Below, in pieces: positions 10,801 to 59,769 of a stretch of DNA of 64,000 nt. Source of the DNA: Candidatus Omnitrophota bacterium (lineage in GTDB: Bacteria > Omnitrophota > Gorgyraeia > B26-G9); the NCBI GenBank assembly GCA_043826565.1, contig JBDRPX010000030.1, positions 21,660-85,659 of the forward strand, in the 5' to 3' direction. The notes below the pieces were generated by a model. The model saw nothing but the letters and a program-made list of their open reading frames with translations. It did not search any database and was not told the origin of the DNA. A program made the translations under genes and the position numbers. Position 1 is the stretch's first letter; each line of letters starts with the position of its first letter.

Positions 10801-12246
10801 TTAATCAATCACATCCACATTCTTTTTATTCATACCCAACACGGATAATGCCGCCTTGGTTTTTTTAAATAATTCATGCGCGGAACGGATCTTTACGGCC
10901 CGGGATAATACATACCCGGGACGCAGATAAAATCCCCGGTAAAATTTCACCAGCAGCCCGAATAATTCCTCACGCTTAAAATTTTCTTCCCATACCGGAA
11001 GTTTAAATCCGGGGCGCGGCTCCCGGGAAAATTCCTGCCAAAGGTCTGTTTTAATAATACCCTGCTTTAGCCCCTGCGCATAGAACTCTGTGCCCGGATA
11101 AGGAGAAAATATGGTAAAATGCGCGTATGCCGGACGTACTGCTTTAGCCAGATTAAAAGAATCCTGAATATCCGCTAAAGTTTCCGAAGGTAATCCGATC
11201 ATAAAATAAGCCAGAGTATCTATGCCGGCCTGCCGGGTGAGATTGAATGTTTCTTTTACTTTTTCAATCGTAAAACCTTTTTTTATTACTTCCAGCATCC
11301 GGTTATTACCGGCTTCGATCCCGTAATGTATGCCCACACACCCGGCTGTTTTTAAAGCCTTGAGCATTTTTTTCTCAACCATATCCACCCGGGTCCGGAT
11401 ATCCCAGCGGATCTTTAACTTCCGGCGGATGATCTCCTCGCATATCTCAAACACACGTTTCTTATCCACGGTAAAAGTATCATCATAAAACAAAAAATCA
11501 CAAATCCCCATTTCCACACATTCGGCAAGCTCATCAACTACATTTTTCGCGCTGCGCGTCCGAAACACCGAAGTTACCGGAGAAAGCGGACGGTCACAGA
11601 AAGCGCAGTGAAACGGACACCCCCGGCTGCTGATAAATGTTGTCGAAAGCCGGCGCCTACTCAATAAAGAACCGTACTGATTCTTATCCACCATCTCCCG
11701 CGCCGGGAACGTGATCGTATCAATATTTTGTATCGGAGCAAAATCATTTTGCACCACTTTTCCCTGCTGATCTTTATACATCAACCCGGGAATTGTTGGG
11801 TAATTTTCCGGATTATTTATGTTCTCTAAAAAAGTAATAAAAGACTCTTCAGCCTCTCCTTTTAAAACAAAATCCACACCCTTAAGATTAATCGTCTCCT
11901 GAGGATATAAATGAACATGAGTTCCGCCTAAAACAACTTTAGCCTGCGGCAGGTTTTTTTTGACCATGGCAACTGTTTTAAAAACATCGATCAGGGTAAA
12001 AGTCATTGCCGTAATTCCCACAACATCATAAGAATCTTTCCCAAGATACGTTTGCAATTGTTCATATGTCCAGTTAAGCGGCTGGGTATCCAGGATTTTC
12101 ACTTCGAATTTATTATATTTTTTAATTGCCGCGGCCAGATAAAGCAAACCCAGCGGTAAATTATAACCCCGGTGTTTTTCTATAATCGCCGGGTTTTTAC
12201 CGATCAGTTCATTCGCTCGGGGAGGATTGATCAGAAGAATTTTCAT
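10801..12246 (-). CDS. B12-binding-domain radical SAM enzyme
   Basis: N-terminal cobalamin-binding-like domain (MKILLINPP...LGLLYLAAAIKKYNKFEVKILD) and a radical SAM CxxxCxxC motif (SRGCPFHCAFCD). Confidence 0.8.
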   Translation of the reverse strand: MKILLINPPRANELIGKNPAIIEKHRGYNLPLGLLYLAAAIKKYNKFEVKILDTQPLNWTYEQLQTYLGKDSYDVVGITAMTFTLIDVFKTVAMVKKNLPQAKVVLGGTHVHLYPQETINLKGVDFVLKGEAEESFITFLENINNPENYPTIPGLMYKDQQGKVVQNDFAPIQNIDTITFPAREMVDKNQYGSLLSRRRLSTTFISSRGCPFHCAFCDRPLSPVTSVFRTRSAKNVVDELAECVEMGICDFLFYDDTFTVDKKRVFEICEEIIRRKLKIRWDIRTRVDMVEKKMLKALKTAGCVGIHYGIEAGNNRMLEVIKKGFTIEKVKETFNLTRQAGIDTLAYFMIGLPSETLADIQDSFNLAKAVRPAYAHFTIFSPYPGTEFYAQGLKQGIIKTDLWQEFSREPRPGFKLPVWEENFKREELFGLLVKFYRGFYLRPGYVLSRAVKIRSAHELFKKTKAALSVLGMNKKNVDVID

Positions 12247-12306: not shown

Positions 12307-12338
12307 CTCTGTAATCTTGTTTAATCTATGTAATCAGG
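12307..12338 (+). promoter_or_regulatory. Copy C of the tripartite GTAATC/TAATC/AATCAGG motif
   Basis: ctctGTAATCttgttTAATCtatgtAATCAGG. It lies 60 nt upstream of the radical SAM start and about 160 nt before repeat-element copy 1. Confidence 0.4.
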
Positions 12339-12497
12339 CGCAGTTGCTATTATGCAACAGCGCCATAATTACTCTATCATACCACCTTAAAAAGGTAAAG
12401 AATAAAGGCATCTACTTCCGTCTGTCTTAATTCTGTTAACTGTTTAAAGTATAAAGTGTAATGTAAAAAATATTTGTTATATATAGTAAATAGATAT

Positions 12498-12621
12498 GGC
12501 AAAAATTCTCTTTGAGCGGCGCTTTCGAGCGTAATCCGCCCATGGATGGGCGAGATAGTGAGAACGCGCGGCCGCCAGGCACGATGCCGCAGCGGGCTTA
12601 GCTCAGATACGTGTTTTTGCC
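12498..12621. repeat. Copy 1 of a conserved ~110-125 nt structured intergenic element (candidate small RNA, leader or MITE)
   Basis: GGCAAAAAttctctttgaGCGGCGCTTTCGAGCG-[hairpin CCGCCCATGGATGGGCG]-GATAGTGAGAACGCGCGGCCGC-[hairpin GGCACGATGCC]-GCAGCGGGCTTAGC...GTGTTTTTGCC. It is homologous to the copies at 22122-22229 and 59585-59706. Terminal 8-nt inverted repeat GGCAAAAA/TTTTTGCC. Confidence 0.5.
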
Positions 12622-12698
12622 ATTAGCTATTTATCCCCCTGAAACTACCACGCCCAGAAGATGTTACATCCTGTAACTCGGCCTGGTCATTTCGTCCT

Positions 12699-12737
12699 GA
12701 AACGAAAACTCCCTCTGCAATTAGATTACAGAGGGAG
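12699..12737 (-). terminator. Rho-independent terminator of the FadL-family gene
   Basis: Minus strand: CTCCCTCTG-taatctaattg-CAGAGGGAG followed by TTTTCGTTT, 70 nt downstream of the stop codon. Confidence 0.55.
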
Positions 12738-12809
12738 TTAAGAAACATTATTCAATTATCCGCCACAAAACATTGGCGGTTAATCTTCGACGCAGAATCT
12801 GCGTCTCAA

Positions 12810-14339
12810 TTAAAACGCCATGCTTAACTGAGCCGTAACCCGGGTTTCTTCCGGAATACTATCTCCGTCAAAGTCGCTGGAGTCAGCAGACATTGCACCG
12901 GCAAGCTCAAGCCTTACCCACGGCATGTTTACTCCTAAACCGGCAGTATAAACCCAGCCGATATCACTTTCTTCGGTATTCTTGTACATTCCCGCGCGTA
13001 AGGAAAGAATTCGGATAAGCATCCATTCCGCGCCAAACGCGATATTTTTTGTATCATAACCGGGTAATGCGGTTTCGTTTTTCGTAATATCGTAATCACA
13101 TTCTAAAGTCATACCATTCCACGGCATAAACGCCACCCCGGCAGTAACAGCAGGGTCTAAACTAACATCCTTAAACACGGTTCCGCCGACCGTCGGCCCG
13201 TCAAACTCAGGACTGTTTAAATTACGCCCGACAATACCCAAATTGAATTTTCCTAATTTGGCCATTGCGCCTAAGTCCACGCCGAAAGTTGTGGTTTCTT
13301 TATAATTATTATCCGCTTCCGATACGATATCACCGGAATCTTTCTTAAAAACTACCAGCTGAGTACCATATACTCTGCCCTTCATTACTTTCAGGTTTCC
13401 GCCGATAGATATATTCTCATTTAAAGCACGGCCGTAAGAAATCGGGATCTCATACATGCCAAACCCTTCTAAGGTAGCGCTGGTAGTATTATTTTCAATA
13501 CCTCCGGTAGTTCCGGTTGTTGCCGCTGCCACACTACCTAAAAGATCTACTGCCTGCTGAAGTTCCGCAGTTCCGGTACTGATACCTGCTTGTCTGGCTG
13601 CATAGTCAAGCTTCTGAATTGAACCTCCTGCACCTGCCGTAAAGCCAGCAGCTAACAACTGAGCTTGTTGCGCAGGAGTAAAAAGAGAAGTTAACCCGTC
13701 ATCTCCGGTTAAAGTTACCGCGACAATGTCGGCATTTAAGGTCGCCATATTCACTTCCAGCCCCAAGTTGGTCGTATCAATAGCAGATACCCGCACACTT
13801 ACCTGCATCATTCCGCGGACACCAATAGCAAAATTATTTATGCGCACCGCAGTTCCGGCATTTCCGTCAAAAGTAATCGCGTTCCCGGAATCATCCAAAC
13901 GGCTGATAAATTCCGCGGCTTTGGTCAGATTCTGCAAATCCGCTTCATTCTGAATATCATTTGCTCCTAATTCCGTAATATCGATTTTTGATAAATCATC
14001 TAATAATTTCCCGAGATTTTCATGAATCCGATAACCTACCCCAACATTCGTATCCCAGGCAAAATTGCCCGGATCAGTATCTAATTCTCTTTGCTGGGCC
14101 ATAAACCCAAATGCCGCCGGATTATAATACTGCGCGGTGGTATCATTAACACATGCCACATTCGCTCCGGCCATACCCGCACCTCTTGCTCCGACAAGGA
14201 AATTATCTAAAGCAAAAACCTGGCTAGGAACCATTAACATCAAACATAATACAAAAGCCGCTGCCCCCGCAATCCTTACATCTATAAACTTTCTCATTCC
14301 TATGTTCCTCCTTTCATTTATTAAAAACCTATTAATCAT
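12810..14339 (-). CDS. FadL/TodX-family outer-membrane beta-barrel transporter for hydrophobic compounds
   Basis: Signal peptide, then GARGAGMAGANVACVNDTTAQYYNPAAFGF (the FadL-family N-terminal NPAG-type motif), and a C-terminal aromatic residue (..QLSMAF). Confidence 0.5.
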   Translation of the reverse strand: MINRFLINERRNIGMRKFIDVRIAGAAAFVLCLMLMVPSQVFALDNFLVGARGAGMAGANVACVNDTTAQYYNPAAFGFMAQQRELDTDPGNFAWDTNVGVGYRIHENLGKLLDDLSKIDITELGANDIQNEADLQNLTKAAEFISRLDDSGNAITFDGNAGTAVRINNFAIGVRGMMQVSVRVSAIDTTNLGLEVNMATLNADIVAVTLTGDDGLTSLFTPAQQAQLLAAGFTAGAGGSIQKLDYAARQAGISTGTAELQQAVDLLGSVAAATTGTTGGIENNTTSATLEGFGMYEIPISYGRALNENISIGGNLKVMKGRVYGTQLVVFKKDSGDIVSEADNNYKETTTFGVDLGAMAKLGKFNLGIVGRNLNSPEFDGPTVGGTVFKDVSLDPAVTAGVAFMPWNGMTLECDYDITKNETALPGYDTKNIAFGAEWMLIRILSLRAGMYKNTEESDIGWVYTAGLGVNMPWVRLELAGAMSADSSDFDGDSIPEETRVTAQLSMAF

Positions 14340-19333: not shown

Positions 19334-22081
19334 TTAACCTCTACCTGTTTCAGGCACATTGACTGCGGTCACAGCACGCTGTGACCCTACTTTTTGTAAT
19401 AACTGTAAATATTTCAATGCCAATTTTTTTCTATCGTAATTTTTAGCCACAAATGACCTGGCCCTACTTCCCATTGCCTGACACTGCTTGGGATTATTTT
19501 TCAAACCCCGGATACTTTTTATCATTTCCTTGGTGTCTTCCGGAGCAACAATCGAAGCGCCCCCGGATTCCTTAAGAATACCTGCAGATTCACCGCGCAG
19601 ACAAGCAACAATAGGTTTTTCACAAGCCATTATTTCAAAAATCTTAGACGGAATAAATGCACTAAATCCCGGCACATCCTTCAAAGGCACAAGACAAACA
19701 TCAGATAAATTATAAAAATTAATAACCTTTTCTCGGGGCTGGCTAGGAATAAAACTAACATTATTTATATTCCTATCTTTTACTCTTTTTACCAATCTCT
19801 GTTTAACTGCACCTTCTCCGACAAAAAGAAAATGCATATCTTCTTCCTTCTGCAATTCTTCGGCCGCATCAATAACACTGTATAACCCATGAGAAATCCC
19901 ATGCGACCCAATATAGGAAACAATAAATCTATTTTTTGGAATGCCTAGTTCAGAGCGTAAAGACGTCTCCCCATTGCCCGACTTAAACATTTGAAGATCT
20001 ACCCCATTAGTAATTACACACACTTTATTTTCCGGAATTCCTCTTTTTATAATATCCTGGGCAAAGCCATTTGTTACCGGAACAACTGCAGCTGATGCCC
20101 GATACAAAAATAATTCCATGGCTTTCAGCACCCAAATTAAAAACTTATTTTTCAAAACGCCTAATTCAATGAATATTCCCGGCCAAAGATCCCTAACTTC
20201 AAAAACATAAGGAACCCTGCGCAATCGGGAAATTATAAAGGTACTGATAACAGAGAAAAATGCCGGAGAGCTCACCATCAACACATCTGGTTTCTTCCCG
20301 CGAAAAAGACTTAGCACAACAACACTAATCATAAATGAAATATGCAAAAGTGTTCTTTTAAAAAGCCCTCTATTCGGTGTATCAAAAAGCCAGTGCCTCC
20401 ACACCTTAATTCCATCAATCCATTCTTCCATGAATATCTTCCCGCGATATTCTGCAGGAATAACCCCTGTTGGATGATTGGGAAACCCGGTAAGCACGGT
20501 TACTTCATGCCCCTGACTAACCCATTCCTTAGCCATTTCTAAAAGCCTGGCCTGTGGCGCCCCAATCTCCGGATAAAAATATTGGCATATTACATTAATT
20601 TTCAATGACTTACTTTCACTCTCTTTGCTTTTACCCTTAACCGTAAATCTGGCTCTCACCAAGCTGAAAAACATTACTACCCTCTTTATCAGCACCCCAT
20701 CCTTAATCGCCTTAATAACCCATTCCTTAAAAAACATCGGATTAATAAAAAAACATTTTCCAAATCGTGCCTGGAATTTCTTATTTACAAAAAATGAAGA
20801 AAGATAATAGTAAGCATTAAGGATATCCTTCTGCTGCATTTTGTCAGTTATCATAACCGGCTGATAATTATCCATATATGTCGGAGATGTAACATACCGC
20901 GACCAGTCGGTTATCTTTAAATACCCTTTTTCCTTGGCAATCCGGTAAAGCTCAGTCCCGGGAAACGGGCAAGCAATGGAGATCATTACATCCTGCCCAA
21001 TATCTTTTAATAGTTGCGCTGTTTTCTTTACAGAATTTATATCTTCTCCTAAATTCCCCACCATTGTAAATGTCCCGATTTGAATCCCTATTTTTCTTGC
21101 TAATGTATGCACAGCAACTATCTGTTCATCGGTAATTCCTTTTTTAAGCTGCTTGCGCACCTGAGCATCTCCTGACTCCACGCCCACATCAATACGTATG
21201 CATCCGCTTTGTTTCATTACTCGTAGCATTTCTTCATCAATTGTATTTACCCGGGCATTGGCCATCCATTTATACTCTACGTCAGATTCTTTAAGCAAAG
21301 AACATAGTTCCAGAACCCGATCTTTTTTAAGCGTAATCATATCATCTACAAAATCAAACTGGGTCATCCCATAAGTTTTATTTAAAAACTCAATTTCTGA
21401 GAATATATTTTTAGCACTCCGGGCGCGAAAAATCCTCCCAAAGATTGTATGCGAATCGCAAAAAATACATTGGTTAGGACACCCCCGGCTGGAAAGCAAT
21501 GCAAAAGTATGTCCCTGCGCTACAGAAAATACCGAGTATTTATTAACATCTATCAGATCCCATGCGGGAAAGGGAAGTGTGTTAATATCCTCAATCAATG
21601 CGCGCGGCTGAGTAGTAACAAAAACTCCAGCACTATCGGAAAAACAAATCCCCTTTATCTTACTAAAATCATTTTCCCCTTTACTGTAAGCTTTAAGCAG
21701 CTCCAGTAAAGTCAGCTCCCCTTCTCCGATAATCGCACAATCTATATCTGCACATTCCTCTAATGTTTCTTTAGGCAATGCCGAAACATGCGGACCGCCG
21801 ACAAATACAGGAGTCACAAAAGAACACTCTTTTATTAACTCAGCTAAACGTAAACACTCTGTATACTGGTTAGTCATAAATGATATGCCCACAGCCAAAG
21901 GCGTATATTTATCCATAAGCCCACGGATTTCTTCCTCTGTATGCGGGGCAGCATTTAAATCAACAATAACCGGATCAAATCCTTCCTGCCTTATATAAGC
22001 AGCAAGATACGCCAACCCCAGCGGGGGATTCTTCCGCGGATATGTATATTTCGGATAAAAAAGCAATACTGTTTTAGTCAT
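19334..22081 (-). CDS. Fusion protein: B12-binding radical SAM domain (N-terminal) plus GT4 glycosyltransferase (C-terminal)
   Basis: B12-binding region (LGLAYLAAYIRQEGFDPVIVDLN) and radical SAM CxxxCxxC (SRGCPNQCIFCD). After ~residue 490 comes a GT4 domain (INVICQYFYPEIGAPQARLLEMAKEW...HEVTVLTG...). The start is placed at ATG 22079-22081 (AGGA 6 nt upstream) rather than the GTG at 22105 used by the ORF track. Confidence 0.7.
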   Translation of the reverse strand: MTKTVLLFYPKYTYPRKNPPLGLAYLAAYIRQEGFDPVIVDLNAAPHTEEEIRGLMDKYTPLAVGISFMTNQYTECLRLAELIKECSFVTPVFVGGPHVSALPKETLEECADIDCAIIGEGELTLLELLKAYSKGENDFSKIKGICFSDSAGVFVTTQPRALIEDINTLPFPAWDLIDVNKYSVFSVAQGHTFALLSSRGCPNQCIFCDSHTIFGRIFRARSAKNIFSEIEFLNKTYGMTQFDFVDDMITLKKDRVLELCSLLKESDVEYKWMANARVNTIDEEMLRVMKQSGCIRIDVGVESGDAQVRKQLKKGITDEQIVAVHTLARKIGIQIGTFTMVGNLGEDINSVKKTAQLLKDIGQDVMISIACPFPGTELYRIAKEKGYLKITDWSRYVTSPTYMDNYQPVMITDKMQQKDILNAYYYLSSFFVNKKFQARFGKCFFINPMFFKEWVIKAIKDGVLIKRVVMFFSLVRARFTVKGKSKESESKSLKINVICQYFYPEIGAPQARLLEMAKEWVSQGHEVTVLTGFPNHPTGVIPAEYRGKIFMEEWIDGIKVWRHWLFDTPNRGLFKRTLLHISFMISVVVLSLFRGKKPDVLMVSSPAFFSVISTFIISRLRRVPYVFEVRDLWPGIFIELGVLKNKFLIWVLKAMELFLYRASAAVVPVTNGFAQDIIKRGIPENKVCVITNGVDLQMFKSGNGETSLRSELGIPKNRFIVSYIGSHGISHGLYSVIDAAEELQKEEDMHFLFVGEGAVKQRLVKRVKDRNINNVSFIPSQPREKVINFYNLSDVCLVPLKDVPGFSAFIPSKIFEIMACEKPIVACLRGESAGILKESGGASIVAPEDTKEMIKSIRGLKNNPKQCQAMGSRARSFVAKNYDRKKLALKYLQLLQKVGSQRAVTAVNVPETGRG

Positions 22082-22121
22082 AATTATCCTCAGGATACAA
22101 AACACAAAAATCTAATAAATT

Positions 22122-22229
22122 GGACAAAATTTCTCTTTTCGCGGCGCTTTCGAGCGTGATTTCGTCACGATGACGAAATAGTGAGAACGCGCGGCCGCAG
22201 CGGACTTAGCGTAAAGATGTGTTTTTGCC
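22122..22229. repeat. Copy 2 of the conserved structured intergenic element, ~40 nt upstream of the radical SAM::GT4 gene
   Basis: GGACAAAATttctcttttcgcGGCGCTTTCGAGCG-[hairpin TTTCGTCACGATGACGAAA]-TAGTGAGAACGCGCGGCCGC-AGCGGACTTAGC...GTGTTTTTGCC. It lacks the second hairpin of copies 1 and 3. The first hairpin has a different sequence but keeps its pairing. Confidence 0.5.
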
Positions 22230-22269
22230 CAATTTAACATAACCACTTTTGTCTTGTCTCTCATGTTTT

Positions 22270-55949: not shown

Positions 55950-58181
55950 TTAATAAAACGTCTGTCCTAGGAACAGATATATTCGGCCGTCCGTACTTCC
56001 CTCGGCCCGGCCATAACCAAAATACAGCGGCCCCAAGAGAGTTTTCATTCCCACAAACACTGTGCCGTTCAAACGCATATCATCCAGATCAATATCACCG
56101 CGCCTGTTCCAGACATCACCGTATTCTACAGCCGCGCCCAGATGAATATTGCTGGCGATCCCGGCATCATCATCACCCAAGGTATAATAATATATCACCC
56201 GGCCCAAGCCGCGGTGCATGCCGCGAAGCTGTTTTTCTCCGTATCCGGAAAGCGATAAAAATCCGCCTAAAGTGAACTGATCATAAAACGGAGTATCTTC
56301 ATCAACACTTGTCCCTGCTTCACCGGCAATTACTAATGTATGCTTGTTAGATAAAGTTCTGGCCCGGGTAAATCCCAATTCCATTTTTTCATAATTAAAA
56401 TCCGCGCCTACTTTTTTATCGGAAACATAAAGCACTGCTTTTGCCTGGGATCCATGTTTAGGAAAAATATGGCTGTCAAACTGGTCATAAAGTATCTGCG
56501 CGGTAAACGCTCCTTCCTGAATACTCTCAAATTCCGGCAAAGCCATACCGCCGACTTCCGGCTCGGCTTCAATACTGCCGCGCTTAACTCCGATTTTAAA
56601 CTGAGTATATGAACAGAAATTCATGCCCAGGTTTATACCCGCGGAATTATGGTCTACGCGATATTCGGCAATGCGGTGGTCCTCCTGATAGATATCATAT
56701 AAATACCTCTGGATAGAAAAATTCGGAGCAATAAAAAACCGGTTGCAGACATCTAAGGGCTGGTGAAATTCCGAATCTATTCCGGTATTCGCGCCAAACC
56801 CAAAAGTATTTCGCCACTCTCCGCCTAAAGAATTAATCTGGGTCATCCGGAAATCCGCAAGTAAGGTATATTCACTATTACCCGTAGAATCGCTATTCAG
56901 ATTAAGGCCAAAACGCAGATAATTAGGTCCCCACTCTTTTTCCTTAGTTTTTACATATAAGCCGCGCTGGCCGTCTTTTTCTATAACATCATAATCAATT
57001 TTTTCAAAATCACCCATGGCGTAAATCCGGTTAAGATCTTTTTCCCATTTTCTCATATCCAGAGAGTCCCCGGGGTGAGTAGCTATCCTGGCCTTGACAG
57101 TTTCCGGGCTTAGTTTTTTGGGTTTAGAAACCTCAACAAATCCCACAATCATCGGATCCGAATCAGCCGGGCGCAGGCGGGAAAGATATTCTTTATACTC
57201 TTTTTCGCTGATACTGTATTTAGCAAAACTATCCGCGATTTTTCGCGCGGCTTGTTCTCCGGCAGTTACTGCTTCCGGGGTCTTATTAAAACTCCCGACG
57301 GCAATACCCCCTACTTGCGGTTTTACAATAATATCATCTTTATCCAGTAAAGCCAATTGGCGCTTGGCATCATCACTTCCCAGAATATCCAGGGCCTGCA
57401 TCATGATCGCCACGGCTGACTGCAGATTTTCCGGTTTATCCAATGCCGGGCCGACATCCACGGCAATAATAATATCCGCGCCCATTTTTTTGGCCACATC
57501 AACCGGAATATTATTTACCACTCCGCCGTCAACCAAGATCTTTCCGTCAACTTCTATTGGAGAAAATGCTCCGGGAATAGACATGCTCGCGCGCATCGCA
57601 TCGGCGATATTGCCGTGATCAAAAATATAAACCTCTCCGCTGCCGATATTCGTAGCTACCGCGCGAAAAGGGATCGGCAAACAATCAAAGTCCTTTATAT
57701 GCGCGGCATCTTTGGTCAGCCGCTTAAGAAAAAATCCCAGTTTTTGCCCGGCAATAAATCCCCGCGGCAGAATGATCTTACCTTTTCGATAACCGGTTTC
57801 AAAATTCATAAGCCGCTGTTCATCATTTTTGCGGCGAAACGGCAAATAATCATCGGTAGGCTTATCACTAAAAAAACCGTTCCAGTCAATTTCATCAAAT
57901 ATCCGGGCCATCTCTTCCGGAGATTTTCCGGAAACATATAATCCGGCCACGATCGCGCCCATGCTTGTACCCACAATATAATCAATGGGCACACGCTGTT
58001 CTTCTAATACTTTAAGCACGCCCACATGCGCGGCGCCGCGCGCTCCGCCCCCGCCTAAAACTAAAGCGATCTTTGGCCGCGTTATCGGATCCTCTGCCCA
58101 CACCAAAGACGAGCACAAGATAATTCGGCAAAATACCATCACTAAAACCAAAACTGTGTTATATCGATATTTTTTTTTCAT
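55950..58181 (-). CDS. Patatin-like phospholipase fused to POTRA + Omp85-type beta-barrel (type Vd autotransporter, PlpD-like)
   Basis: Signal peptide, the patatin motifs GGGGARGAAHVGVLKVLEE and the nucleophile elbow GTSMGAIV, a DGG catalytic Asp region (LVDGGVVNNIPV), then a ~400-aa C-terminal Omp85/surface-antigen-like region. Confidence 0.6.
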   Translation of the reverse strand: MKKKYRYNTVLVLVMVFCRIILCSSLVWAEDPITRPKIALVLGGGGARGAAHVGVLKVLEEQRVPIDYIVGTSMGAIVAGLYVSGKSPEEMARIFDEIDWNGFFSDKPTDDYLPFRRKNDEQRLMNFETGYRKGKIILPRGFIAGQKLGFFLKRLTKDAAHIKDFDCLPIPFRAVATNIGSGEVYIFDHGNIADAMRASMSIPGAFSPIEVDGKILVDGGVVNNIPVDVAKKMGADIIIAVDVGPALDKPENLQSAVAIMMQALDILGSDDAKRQLALLDKDDIIVKPQVGGIAVGSFNKTPEAVTAGEQAARKIADSFAKYSISEKEYKEYLSRLRPADSDPMIVGFVEVSKPKKLSPETVKARIATHPGDSLDMRKWEKDLNRIYAMGDFEKIDYDVIEKDGQRGLYVKTKEKEWGPNYLRFGLNLNSDSTGNSEYTLLADFRMTQINSLGGEWRNTFGFGANTGIDSEFHQPLDVCNRFFIAPNFSIQRYLYDIYQEDHRIAEYRVDHNSAGINLGMNFCSYTQFKIGVKRGSIEAEPEVGGMALPEFESIQEGAFTAQILYDQFDSHIFPKHGSQAKAVLYVSDKKVGADFNYEKMELGFTRARTLSNKHTLVIAGEAGTSVDEDTPFYDQFTLGGFLSLSGYGEKQLRGMHRGLGRVIYYYTLGDDDAGIASNIHLGAAVEYGDVWNRRGDIDLDDMRLNGTVFVGMKTLLGPLYFGYGRAEGSTDGRIYLFLGQTFY

Positions 58182-58752
58182 TAGGGTAACGGACAGGTTG
58201 CAAACCTGTCCCTACATGTATATTTACATTATTTTCGTCTTCTGCCCATGCGGCAGGATTATTAATTATATATTCGCGAATATTGTTCAACGATTTGTCA
58301 TTACGTATGATGTGATCATGAAAAGACCGTTGCCATTTAAATTTATTTCCTGTTTTTATTGTTATATTTATTTGTTTTGATGAAAATGTTTTGAAACCAC
58401 GGATGATTTCCGATAATGAATATGATTTATTATTGTTAACCTGTAGGGGAGGGTTTGTAACCCTCCCTCTAGGATTAACCCTTTTATTGAAATTATCAAT
58501 AATCAAAATCCCATGAATATGGTTGGGCATAAGAATAAATGTATCGATACTTAGATTATTATAGTGTGTTGGTAAATCTAGCCAAGTTTGCTGGCAAATT
58601 CTACCATACAAGTTTATTTGTATCTGATCATTTATAACATTTCCCAGCCATTCTTTGCGACCATCGGTGCAAATAGTTACATAATAATAACCATTAAGCG
58701 TATAATCGCAGTGTTTCAATCGATTATTTTTACGTGTATAAAATTTTACCAT
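58159..58752 (-). CDS. IS200/IS605-family Y1 (HUH) transposase of the REP-associated (RAYT) type, carrying an in-frame 39-bp REP-like insertion
   Basis: HuH motif MPNHIHGILI, the Tyr region SYSLSEIIRGFKTFSSKQIN, and the RAYT-typical WQRSFHDHIIRND...YIINNPAAW. Confidence 0.65.
   Translation of the reverse strand: MVKFYTRKNNRLKHCDYTLNGYYYVTICTDGRKEWLGNVINDQIQINLYGRICQQTWLDLPTHYNNLSIDTFILMPNHIHGILIIDNFNKRVNPRGRVTNPPLQVNNNKSYSLSEIIRGFKTFSSKQINITIKTGNKFKWQRSFHDHIIRNDKSLNNIREYIINNPAAWAEDENNVNIHVGTGLQPVRYPNEKKISI
58191..58211. repeat. REP-like palindrome GGACAGGTT-gca-AACCTGTCC inside the 3' end of the RAYT ORF, 10 nt upstream of the patatin gene ATG
   Basis: Perfect 9-bp stem read from the sequence. 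It is homologous in form (GGTT/AACC core with compensatory arm changes) to the palindrome at 58447-58467. Confidence 0.5.
58442..58480. repeat. 39-bp REP-like insertion in the RAYT gene: palindrome GGGAGGGTT-tgt-AACCCTCCC plus a 6-bp direct repeat TTAACC (58436-58441 and 58475-58480)
   Basis: Read from the sequence. The insert plus one direct repeat is 39 bp (13 codons) and encodes the extra loop PRGRVTNPPLQVN between the HuH and Tyr motifs. Confidence 0.5.
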
Positions 58753-58810: not shown

Positions 58811-59542
58811 TTAGTTACTCTTATTTTTCCGCCGTTCTTTCAAAGACATTCCCGGCACCCCGCAATATACTGTACGCGGTTCAATAATTGTATTTTTGCC
58901 CAGCACCGTACCCGCGGCCAGCATCGCCTGATCACCGATCTGGCATCCGGGCAAAACCACAGAATTCAAACCGATCACCGCGCGATTGCCGATCTTAACT
59001 TTTTTTAAAACCAATCTTCCCCGCTCAAAAGAATGTCCGATCACCGTAGCATGGCCGCCGATAACCGCGCTATCGCCGATCTCCAAAAGAGACAGATCAG
59101 CGCAAAACTTGGAATTTATCTGTACATTCTTACCCAGCTTCGCGCCCATTAAACGGTAAAAAAGATTAATAAAAGGAGTAATTAAAATAAAATCCATAAA
59201 TGTATTAGCGACTACCAGGACCAGGGAATTGACCAAAGCCCATTTCAAAGCCCCCGGAGAAGCCATGGGATATTCCCCTTCTTTTAAAGTTAGTCCGAAT
59301 AAAATCCGGACTATTCCGACAATAAAAATCAAACATAATCCATAAATAAAATAAGCCGCCGCGATCCCTAAGGAAAACGCCAGTATCTGCCAAACCAAAG
59401 AATATTCCGCCGCCAGATTAACAAACTTAACACACAATAACAGTCCGGGAAAAATCGCCAAGCCGATAACAAATATCCCCACCACATACATGAATAATGT
59501 AAACAACAACTGCACAATCGTCGTAATCAACCATTTCATAGC
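58811..59542 (-). CDS. Membrane-anchored hexapeptide-repeat (LbH) acyltransferase
   Basis: Start moved to MKWLITTIV (ATG 59540-59542, GGAGG RBS); the longer ORF-track start would run into the repeat element. Three or four N-terminal TM helices, then LbH repeats (IGDSAVIGGHATVIGHSFERGRLVLKKVKIGNRAVIGLNSVVLPGCQIGDQAMLAAGTVLG). Confidence 0.55.
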   Translation of the reverse strand, partial: AMKWLITTIVQLLFTLFMYVVGIFVIGLAIFPGLLLCVKFVNLAAEYSLVWQILAFSLGIAAAYFIYGLCLIFIVGIVRILFGLTLKEGEYPMASPGALKWALVNSLVLVVANTFMDFILITPFINLFYRLMGAKLGKNVQINSKFCADLSLLEIGDSAVIGGHATVIGHSFERGRLVLKKVKIGNRAVIGLNSVVLPGCQIGDQAMLAAGTVLGKNTIIEPRTVYCGVPGMSLKERRKNKSN

Positions 59543-59584
59543 AACCCTCCGATTTAAAGTATTACGTCCCATAAGTACAGATAA

Positions 59585-59706
59585 CGCAAAAATTATCTTT
59601 GAACGGCGCTTTGAATCGTCATTTTTGCACGAGGCAAAAATAGATTCAACGCGCGGCCGCAAGGCATGGATGCCGCTGCGGGCTTAGTGAAAAGATGTGT
59701 TTTGCG
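59585..59706. repeat. Copy 3 of the conserved structured intergenic element, ~45 nt upstream of the LbH acyltransferase gene
   Basis: CGCAAAAATtatctttgaacGGCGCTTTGAATCG-[hairpin ATTTTTGCACGAGGCAAAAAT]-AGATTCAACGCGCGGCCGC-[hairpin GGCATGGATGCC]-GCTGCGGGCTTAG...GTGTTTTGCG. The terminal inverted repeat is CGCAAAA/TTTTGCG, a compensatory change relative to GGCAAAAA/TTTTTGCC in copies 1 and 2. Confidence 0.5.
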
Positions 59707-59769
59707 ATATCCCTATATATTTCATTATATATTTCCATTCTTTATTACGGGTGCAGGCAAGCAGCGCCC

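Follow-up and report, generated by a model that had tools for sequence, protein, structure and literature searches.

What is the short intergenic element that occurs three times, always in the same orientation, in a 64-kb stretch of a Candidatus Omnitrophota genome? The copies lie at 12498-12621, 22122-22229 and 59585-59706 of this stretch, which we call the window at its full length. The original prediction took them for a novel structured RNA, or a miniature inverted-repeat transposable element (MITE), tied to operons for B12-binding radical SAM (S-adenosylmethionine) enzymes. We find that they share a Y-shaped fold with covarying stems, and that a distant relative carries it too. With a probability of roughly 0.4, the Y element is a small non-coding, structure-dependent and non-autonomous repeat.

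Alignment and a covariance model, the latter built from the three window copies and one outside copy (contig SDBU01000037.1, locus L068), confirm three homologous and co-oriented elements where they had been placed. Below, + denotes the forward strand of the window, and the mRNAs beside the copies are on the minus strand.

12488..12632, + strand: copy 1, the full Y including the extended closing stem; covariance model 134.5 bits; RNA fold −61.6 kcal/mol on + versus −51.7 on −, z −4.56.
22112..22240, + strand: copy 2, the Y without its second arm; covariance model 124.5 bits, alignments and Pfam context.
59575..59718, + strand: copy 3, the full Y; covariance model 141.2 bits; fold −56.2 kcal/mol, z −5.61.

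The model scores these copies at 124–141 bits (E 1e-30 to 1e-35), and with its filters off it finds no further copy above ~14 bits in the 64 kb. Each copy contains the 13-mer AACGCGCGGCCGC once, and it is found nowhere else in the window, with 0.76 matches expected even when two mismatches are allowed. The copies are 62–68% identical to each other in the model alignment. Their conserved blocks are as first described, with minor variants in block 1 of copy 3 (GGCGCTTTGAATCG), block 3 of copy 2 (GCGGACTTAG, carrying a G>A change) and block 4 of copy 1 (ACGTGTTTTTGC).

Between the blocks, the first hairpin (HP1) varies among the copies as CCGCCCATGGATGGGCG, TTTCGTCACGATGACGAAA and ATTTTTGCACGAGGCAAAAAT, and the second (HP2) is GGCACGATGCC or GGCATGGATGCC where it is present. 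It is deleted from copy 2, in which 15–16 nt between two GCCGC direct repeats are absent and correspond to the lost HP2 of arm P4. Both the variable first hairpin and the deletion of the second from one copy had been noticed correctly.

All copies share one architecture of ~125–140 nt, a closing stem that leads through a three-way junction into two arms. The closing stem (P1+P2) has 17–20 bp, where P1 consists of a conserved A5/T5 tract and variable outer pairs and P2 extends inward. The terminal pairs differ among the copies yet stay complementary, being ATGGC/GCCAT, AAATTGG.C/G.CCCAATTT and GATA.CGC/GCG.TATC. The compensating terminal inverted repeat of the original prediction is real and longer than it stated, as it runs 4–8 bp past the conserved sequence.

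The junction is invariant and GC-rich, GCGGCGC...GCGCGGCCGC...GCGGRCTTAGC, with the strand order ...GC-G-GCGC...GCGC-GGCCGC...GCGGRC-TTA-GC.... Arm P3 rises from a GCGC/GCGC base through TTC/GAA and a conserved asymmetric internal loop (GTNAT opposite ATAG) to a terminal hairpin of 7–8 bp, the stem of which is wholly different in each copy. In arm P4, the base GGCCGC/GCGGRC is invariant and carries a GGCA...TGCC hairpin. The tips of both arms are of the form CA-(CGA or TGGA)-TG, and the two loop types are swapped between the arms in copy 1 and the outside copy. The parts of copy 1 are the following.

12488..12506, + strand: 5′ strand of P1, pairing with 12613-12632; A5/T5 tract kept, outer pairs variable, 5 of 10 pairs changed on both sides.
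12511..12517, + strand: 5′ strand of P2, TTTGAGC, pairing with 12601-12607; two of its pairs are tandem G.A/A.G in copy 3 and the outside copy.
12519..12569, + strand: arm P3, with GCGC/GCGC, TTC/GAA, tandem G.A/A.G plus G.T (Watson-Crick in copy 3) and the GTNAT/ATAG loop.
12534-12556, + strand: HP1 within P3, tip CA-TGGA-TG; 5 of 8 pairs changed on both sides.
12570..12597, + strand: arm P4, with the invariant GGCCGC/GCGGGC base and HP2 (12578-12588, GGCA-CGA-TGCC).
12598-12600, + strand: invariant junction TTA, directly after P4.

On both strands the fold is more stable than shuffled sequence, with z of −3.0 to −5.9 for RNA and −3.5 to −6.7 for DNA. Covariation was computed on the model-based alignment of the four sequences, with 500 shuffles and partners slid by 1–3 columns as the controls. 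Standard pairs form in 92.6% of the cells versus 37–49% with the slid partners. Changes on both sides are found in 13 of the 42 pairs, compared with 5.6 ± 1.7 in the shuffles (0/500 as high) and 2–6 in the slid controls.

The covariation is located in P1 and HP1, with few events in P2 and P3. Since the junction-proximal helices and HP2 never vary, they are uninformative on pairing, either way. The earlier claim of covariation at three helices stands for at least two of them, P1 and HP1, in which compensatory replacement is evident. The conserved secondary structure is real, as judged from four sequences only.

How widely is the fold distributed? We scanned 185,579 species genomes of GTDB, from which the source genome is evidently absent, for two core blocks (GGCGCTTTN{25,50}AACGCGCGGCCGC). 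The 66 matches are chance ones, because all are single, lie in DNA of 48–73% GC and are without the third block CTTAG, so no species representative has a true element at the exact-block level. A three-block scan of a metagenome collection gave one true match, the copy on SDBU01000037.1. Papers cite this contig as a Loki's Castle deep-sea sediment assembly, and we call it and its host Loki.

The Loki organism is a distantly related Omnitrophota, with an RRM protein 55% identical to the window's and an FKBP 37% identical. Its copy is nearest to copy 1, at 84% over 119 nt by BLAST and at 73% overall and 80% in the core by the model alignment. On aligned identity, the best pair is the cross-genome one, and the similarity between genomes at least equals that within a genome. 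The Loki copy lies between two divergent genes, ~20 nt upstream of the ribosome-binding site (RBS) of the one for a U32 peptidase.

The 47.5 kb of the Loki contig hold this full copy and a shortened one, and the 69 kb of the window host hold the three copies, all of them extragenic. The shortened copy keeps only the 5′ ~35 nt, with 23 of 24 positions in the 5′ arm equal to copy 1. The genes on either side converge on it with their 3′ ends. Exact direct repeats of 28 nt bracket it, and a 230-nt nest of palindromes surrounds it.

This nest (L080 8860-9100, the same as L073 15105-15345, minus strand) folds at −75 kcal/mol with z −4.6. It holds two exact 28-nt direct repeats (ACATATGTTTTTGAACGATTCACGATTT) and another hairpin, GCAAAAAAATGG...CCATTTTTTGC; a second, related repeat family may be present there. 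Between the NCBI and ENA assemblies of the Loki contig (L080 and L081; the ENA name carries BioSample SAMN10397929), indels of ~30–50 nt are seen at L080 1558-1600 and ~13925-13971, one inside a pabB-like gene and one near an aldolase gene. These are probably collapsed or expanded short repeats.

In the other sequences covered, the element is missing. There is no copy in ~70 kb of loci from closer relatives, around the genes of PFOR proteins 79–85% and RAYT (REP-associated tyrosine transposase) proteins 68–74% identical to the window's, and upstream of the PFOR genes these loci are not syntenic with the window. BLAST of plasmid and phage collections found no similar DNA. Two scans of viral contigs gave one chance match in one and none in the other.

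Which strand is the folding one? The non-Watson-Crick cells of the consensus helices on + are G.T (4–5 cells), tandem G.A/A.G and a single A.C. Three copies have the tandem G.A/A.G in P3 and two have it in P2, with Watson-Crick pairs at these positions in the others. On the minus strand, which is that of the mRNAs, these G.T and G.A cells become A.C and C.U mismatches.

The RNA folds on + and − are −61.6 and −51.7 kcal/mol for copy 1, −41.8 and −40.7 for copy 2, −56.2 and −53.2 for copy 3, and −64.7 and −55.1 for the full Loki copy. The + strand folds better in all four with RNA parameters and in three with DNA parameters. The mismatch pattern and the fold energies weakly favour the strand antisense to the genes, amounting to ~5–6 independent events and not significant (p ~0.1 by our estimate). 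All five copies and fragments are on the strand of negative GC skew, opposite to nearly all local genes.

Signals for transcription do not mark the element. Promoter-like and terminator-like signals are not above shuffles at any copy. An outward promoter was rejected, as no consistent −35/−10 pair is found on either strand.

The genes near the window copies are all on the minus strand. Copy 1 is followed by a B12-radical SAM gene (10801-12246) at 252 nt from element to start codon. Copy 2 is followed at 41 nt by the radical SAM::GT4 fusion gene, has the stop codon of a C5-epimerase gene ~30 nt on the other side, and lies within an exopolysaccharide cluster. Copy 3 is followed at 46 nt by the gene of an LbH (hexapeptide) acyltransferase (58811-59539), and an alpha/beta hydrolase gene is 52 nt upstream of the copy. 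These distances agree with the 40–260 nt before minus-strand operon starts given at first.

Around copy 1, two further hairpins were seen. One at 12707-12739 (−) is terminator-like, with 15 pairs by the scanner followed by TTTTCGTTT, and comes after a TraF_2/PorP-like outer-membrane-protein gene; copy 1 is ~75 nt downstream and thus beyond a probable transcription stop. The other at 12338-12365 is a near-perfect 11-bp hairpin (GGCGCAGTTGC TATTAT GCAACAGCGCC) between copy 1 and the B12-radical SAM gene, ~100 nt before its start, with no T run after it.

The exopolysaccharide/O-antigen-type cluster around copy 2 spans ~32 kb of a single strand (~17877-50327, −). It encodes a Wza-like exporter, a Wzc-like kinase, two Wzy_C proteins, a flippase, ~10 glycosyltransferases, several methyltransferases, a D-glucuronyl C5-epimerase, and the radical SAM::GT4 and an epimerase::sugar-transferase fusion. 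Inside it, across 28–44 kb of the window, the GC content falls to 0.34–0.36.

Is the element, then, tied to the radical SAM genes? It is factually correct that two of the three downstream genes are the window's two B12-radical SAM genes, the only ones of the CxxxCxxC/B12 type there. The tie fails outside the window, because the Loki copy precedes the U32 peptidase gene and the two radical SAM genes within the 47.5 kb of Loki, one with a faint B12-domain match, have no element beside them. Copy 3 before the acyltransferase gene does not follow it either.

Between the genomes, no recurrence upstream of homologous or linked genes is seen, the downstream genes being those for radical SAM, radical SAM::GT4, LbH acyltransferase and U32 peptidase. 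The local association with radical SAM genes in two of three copies should not be taken as a riboswitch.

The Loki contig also has a cobalamin salvage and uptake cluster at ~27–37 kb (L078/L082), with CobU, CobT, CobS, BtuR, BtuF/C/D-like proteins, a TonB-dependent receptor and TonB. It is ~10 kb from the Loki copy, and no Y element was found in it.

How could such an element work and persist? In the reading that we tentatively favour, the imperfect palindrome would fold as a single strand into the Y. The invariant junction, the GTNAT/ATAG internal loop and the two tips would form the surface read by a trans-acting protein, for which a recombinase, a transposase or another structure-specific binder is a candidate. 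The stems would need only to pair, which may be why they are replaced wholesale between copies.

We infer further that the element spread or was exchanged among the intergenic sites of a few Omnitrophota lineages, and that it would act as folded single-stranded DNA or as RNA. Its uniform strand, opposite to the local genes, could come from strand-specific copying of single-stranded DNA or from purging of the other orientation.

The structure-dependent repeat is favoured because the downstream genes are unrelated, the distribution is patchy, decayed copies occur, the similarity crosses genomes, the structure is under selection, the strand is uniform, and the mismatches point to the antisense side. 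We liken it to REPINs because frozen motifs are combined with compensating stems, as in REPIN populations (PMC3116915).

A candidate for the partner is encoded close by. An open reading frame for a RAYT-type Y1/HUH transposase (58159-58752, −) is 830 nt from copy 3 with one gene between. Its HUH motif is NHIHG and its Tyr motif REYIINNP. It matches Pfam Y1_Tnp with 26.8 bits, above the cut-off of 23, and NCBIfam NF047646 with E 1e-15 and 57.8 bits, below the curated cut-off of 80 bits. With this gene, the host encodes a single-strand DNA transposase, which counts on the side of the repeat.

The RAYT has repetitive extragenic palindromic (REP) hairpins of its own. One (GTAGGGACAGGTTTGCAACCTGTCC, 58191-58215, −) overlaps the 3′ end of the gene, and the other (GTAGGGGAGGGTTTGTAACCCTCCC, 58443-58468, +) is inside the gene on the opposite strand. 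Both are within the reading frame, where they encode the conserved peptides VGTGLQPV and EGYKPSP, and both are kept in nucleotide sequence at three homologous loci (L074, L075 and L076) from other organisms. There, the RAYT homologues sit within housekeeping operons (xseA/xseB; PNP/ileS).

Of true GTAGGG hairpins, the window has only those at the RAYT gene. A looser scan for GTAG plus a hairpin yielded one further case of the GTAGGG type at ~19390 and an AT-rich one at ~41989 that may be due to chance, neither overlapping a Y element. The first, with an 8-bp hairpin GTAGGGTCACAGCGTGCTGTGACC at ~19365-19390 (−), falls within the final ~20 codons of the radical SAM::GT4 gene; it may belong, as a dispersed REP, to the family that goes with the RAYT. 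No transposase besides RAYT was seen among the annotated window genes.

We rejected RAYT as the specific partner of the Y element for its own GTAGGG hairpins, its homologue loci without the element and the 47.5 kb of the Loki host without a RAYT. This is part of what weighs against a structure-dependent repeat. The window RAYT carries its own classical GTAG hairpins, no Y element is found in the RAYT-homologue loci, no RAYT within 47.5 kb of the Loki copies, and no cognate enzyme of the Y element was found.

Further weight on that side comes from the copies themselves. Only four full copies are known, and three of them end 20–46 nt from a start codon in a fixed orientation, a placement also expected from a host function in gene expression. 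The association of two of three window copies with radical SAM genes is nominally unlikely by chance (~0.003–0.03, a post hoc combinatorial estimate of ours). Provided that genes run with replication, the strand that folds better (+) would serve as template for the leading strand, and in the IS608 paradigm that strand is not the exposed one.

The ends of the element add to these points. The flanks are inverted complements (ATGGC...GCCAT and so on) without direct repeats, where only ambiguous AT dinucleotides could be target-site duplications. The outermost 4–8 bp differ in every copy, unlike the inverted repeats of a MITE, and the A5/T5 tract and adjacent bases are kept.

The close placement before genes could instead reflect an RNA acting in cis in the minus-strand mRNAs, in 5′ untranslated regions or between cistrons, either as a determinant of processing or stability (an RNase III/E site or a block to exonucleases) or as a regulator binding a protein or ligand. 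Each of the four full copies points the same way as the gene after it, three of them ending 20–46 nt before an RBS or start codon, and the Loki copy leaves no room for a promoter before the start codon. Copy 2 must be co-transcribed, because only 30 and 41 nt separate it from its neighbours in an operon-like string of genes. A conserved junction with covarying stems would be expected from such an RNA, and its radical SAM link would be the two window copies before the only two B12-radical SAM genes; the heterogeneity of the downstream genes and the Loki radical SAM genes without an element speak against this reading. Nor does the structure come with an expression platform, as neither a terminator directly after it nor an RBS-sequestering segment is seen, and promoter or terminator signals are not above shuffles. 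It is absent from Rfam and, by exact blocks, from the GTDB representatives. On the mRNA strand G.T and G.A turn into A.C and C.U, the + strand being the better RNA fold in 4/4 copies, and the shortened Loki copy lies between convergent gene ends. We regard this explanation as doubtful.

If the RNA is on the + strand instead, the copies would form one family of genes for small RNAs, antisense to the operons around them, each giving a ~130-nt Y RNA with paired ends and a protein partner. The more stable + fold of all four copies and the 4–5 G.U pairs and all the tandem G.A on +, versus one A.C, would be accounted for, as would the invariant junction and tips with variable stems; the strand preference itself is not significant (~5–6 events, p ~0.1 by our estimate). 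The covarying outermost pairs of P1 would need transcript ends outside the conserved region, and no + strand promoter- or terminator-like signal rises above shuffles at any copy. Copy 2 without an arm and the patchy distribution also fit poorly, and such genes seem improbable. Less probable by far is an invertible, phase-variable segment, in which the terminal inverted repeats would be recombinase sites around a ~105-bp switch before polysaccharide or envelope genes. Inverted repeats of 8–14 bp do flank each copy directly upstream of genes, one copy being inside the 32-kb exopolysaccharide cluster and another before the acyltransferase gene, whereas the U32 peptidase context of the Loki copy does not fit. 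The switch would leave the covarying internal hairpin and the three-way junction without a role. Its interior is GC-rich with no promoter-like hexamers, its outer inverted repeats are not conserved, no invertase or integrase gene is among the annotated window genes, and two independent assemblies of the source sample agree on the orientation.

It is conceivable, though we would not expect it, that the Y is a structured nucleic acid of a new class specific to some Omnitrophota, either a Y-shaped RNA of ~130 nt or a folded single-stranded DNA site, which a dedicated protein reads through the junction, loop and tips. The partner might be a recombinase or transposase of a new, structure-guided kind; it might also be a regulator that binds RNA and coordinates envelope and radical SAM genes.

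The Omnitrophota are an uncultured and poorly understood phylum, and their non-coding elements are almost unstudied. A free sequence but a frozen branched fold, junction and tips across two distant hosts points to a specific protein partner. Once found, the partner would reveal a new structure-guided mobilisation system or a new regulatory RNA–protein pair. The covariance model built here serves for a wider census.

Which known kind of element does the Y come closest to? Rfam 15 has no match in the whole window at gathering thresholds, nor in the Loki locus at E ≤ 1, and at E ≤ 10 around copy 1 it gives only a spurious partial match of 14 bits inside the element. This upholds the first impression that no known riboswitch consensus is present. 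Of the two kinds proposed at first, the novel structured RNA holds as far as the covarying structure and its novelty to Rfam go, and not as an RNA linked to radical SAM; the tested features are unlike a plain MITE.

Several simple roles were discarded. A hammerhead or other ribozyme and the known riboswitches were rejected with no Rfam match and no core motifs by eye. An intrinsic terminator was rejected with no scanner match at the copies, and the Loki copy cannot have this role because it is between divergent gene starts. Coding potential was rejected, as stop codons in copy 3 interrupt the frame open in copy 1. Among 5.8 billion proteins, nothing matched the open translations of the four copies, taken in all six frames, at E ≤ 10.

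With the three-way-junction riboswitches (purine and TPP), the Y shares a closing helix, invariant junction nucleotides, two covarying arms and a position upstream of genes. It differs in the missing Rfam match and expression platform, the heterogeneous downstream genes, the occurrence in only two organisms, the loss of an arm in one copy and the mismatches that favour the antisense strand.

The attC sites of integrons are alike in putting structure over sequence, in folding as a single strand and in keeping one orientation between co-directional genes. Long attC sites can also have branched variable terminal structures. However, the ends of the Y, (G)GCAAAAAT...GTGTTTTTGCC on + or its complement, read GCAAAAA...TTTTTGC and fit neither R'' (RYYYAAC) nor R' (GTTRRRY), and on this end consensus an attC site was rejected. 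The spacing differs too, with 9.6 and 37 kb between Y copies where attC sites follow each other gene by gene, and no integrase is among the annotated window genes.

The MITE-like repeats, such as Correia of Neisseria, ERIC/IRU of enterobacteria, RUP and BOX, span 100–150 nt, have terminal inverted repeats, lie between genes and are often transcribed together with their neighbours. They have predicted stem-loops, and truncated and internally deleted copies exist. The Y shares their size, terminal inverted repeats, intergenic placement, stem-loop fold and decayed copies. Its copies, 62–73% identical, combine invariant blocks with replaced stems, whereas those repeats decay uniformly from a consensus, and the Y is branched, not a simple fold-back.

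The REP and REPIN elements are similar in being short, extragenic, multi-copy and folding as single strands, with frozen motifs and freely changing stems, and a RAYT-type gene is in the window. In REPINs and REPs, the recognition motifs are highly conserved and the stem sequence is free if pairing is kept (PMC3116915). GTAG is a key determinant for TnpA-REP; the E. coli system cannot do without it, and two others tolerate its mutation in part (PMC8266576). No Y copy has GTAG at a hairpin foot, and the invariant tetranucleotides are instead ATAG (3′ of the first hairpin) and TTAG (junction).

Nor is the Y a symmetric doublet of inverted REPs, as only P1/P2 is self-complementary and the interior consists of two unlike arms on a three-way junction. 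It does not flank the RAYT gene; the hairpin that flanks and overlaps this gene is another, of the GTAG type, with no sequence relation to the Y. The Y element is thus outside REP/REPIN, MITE and attC as they are defined, and is not dedicated to radical SAM genes. In the way it works, it is nearest to a REPIN or a MITE-type palindromic repeat, although it departs from both in their defining features.

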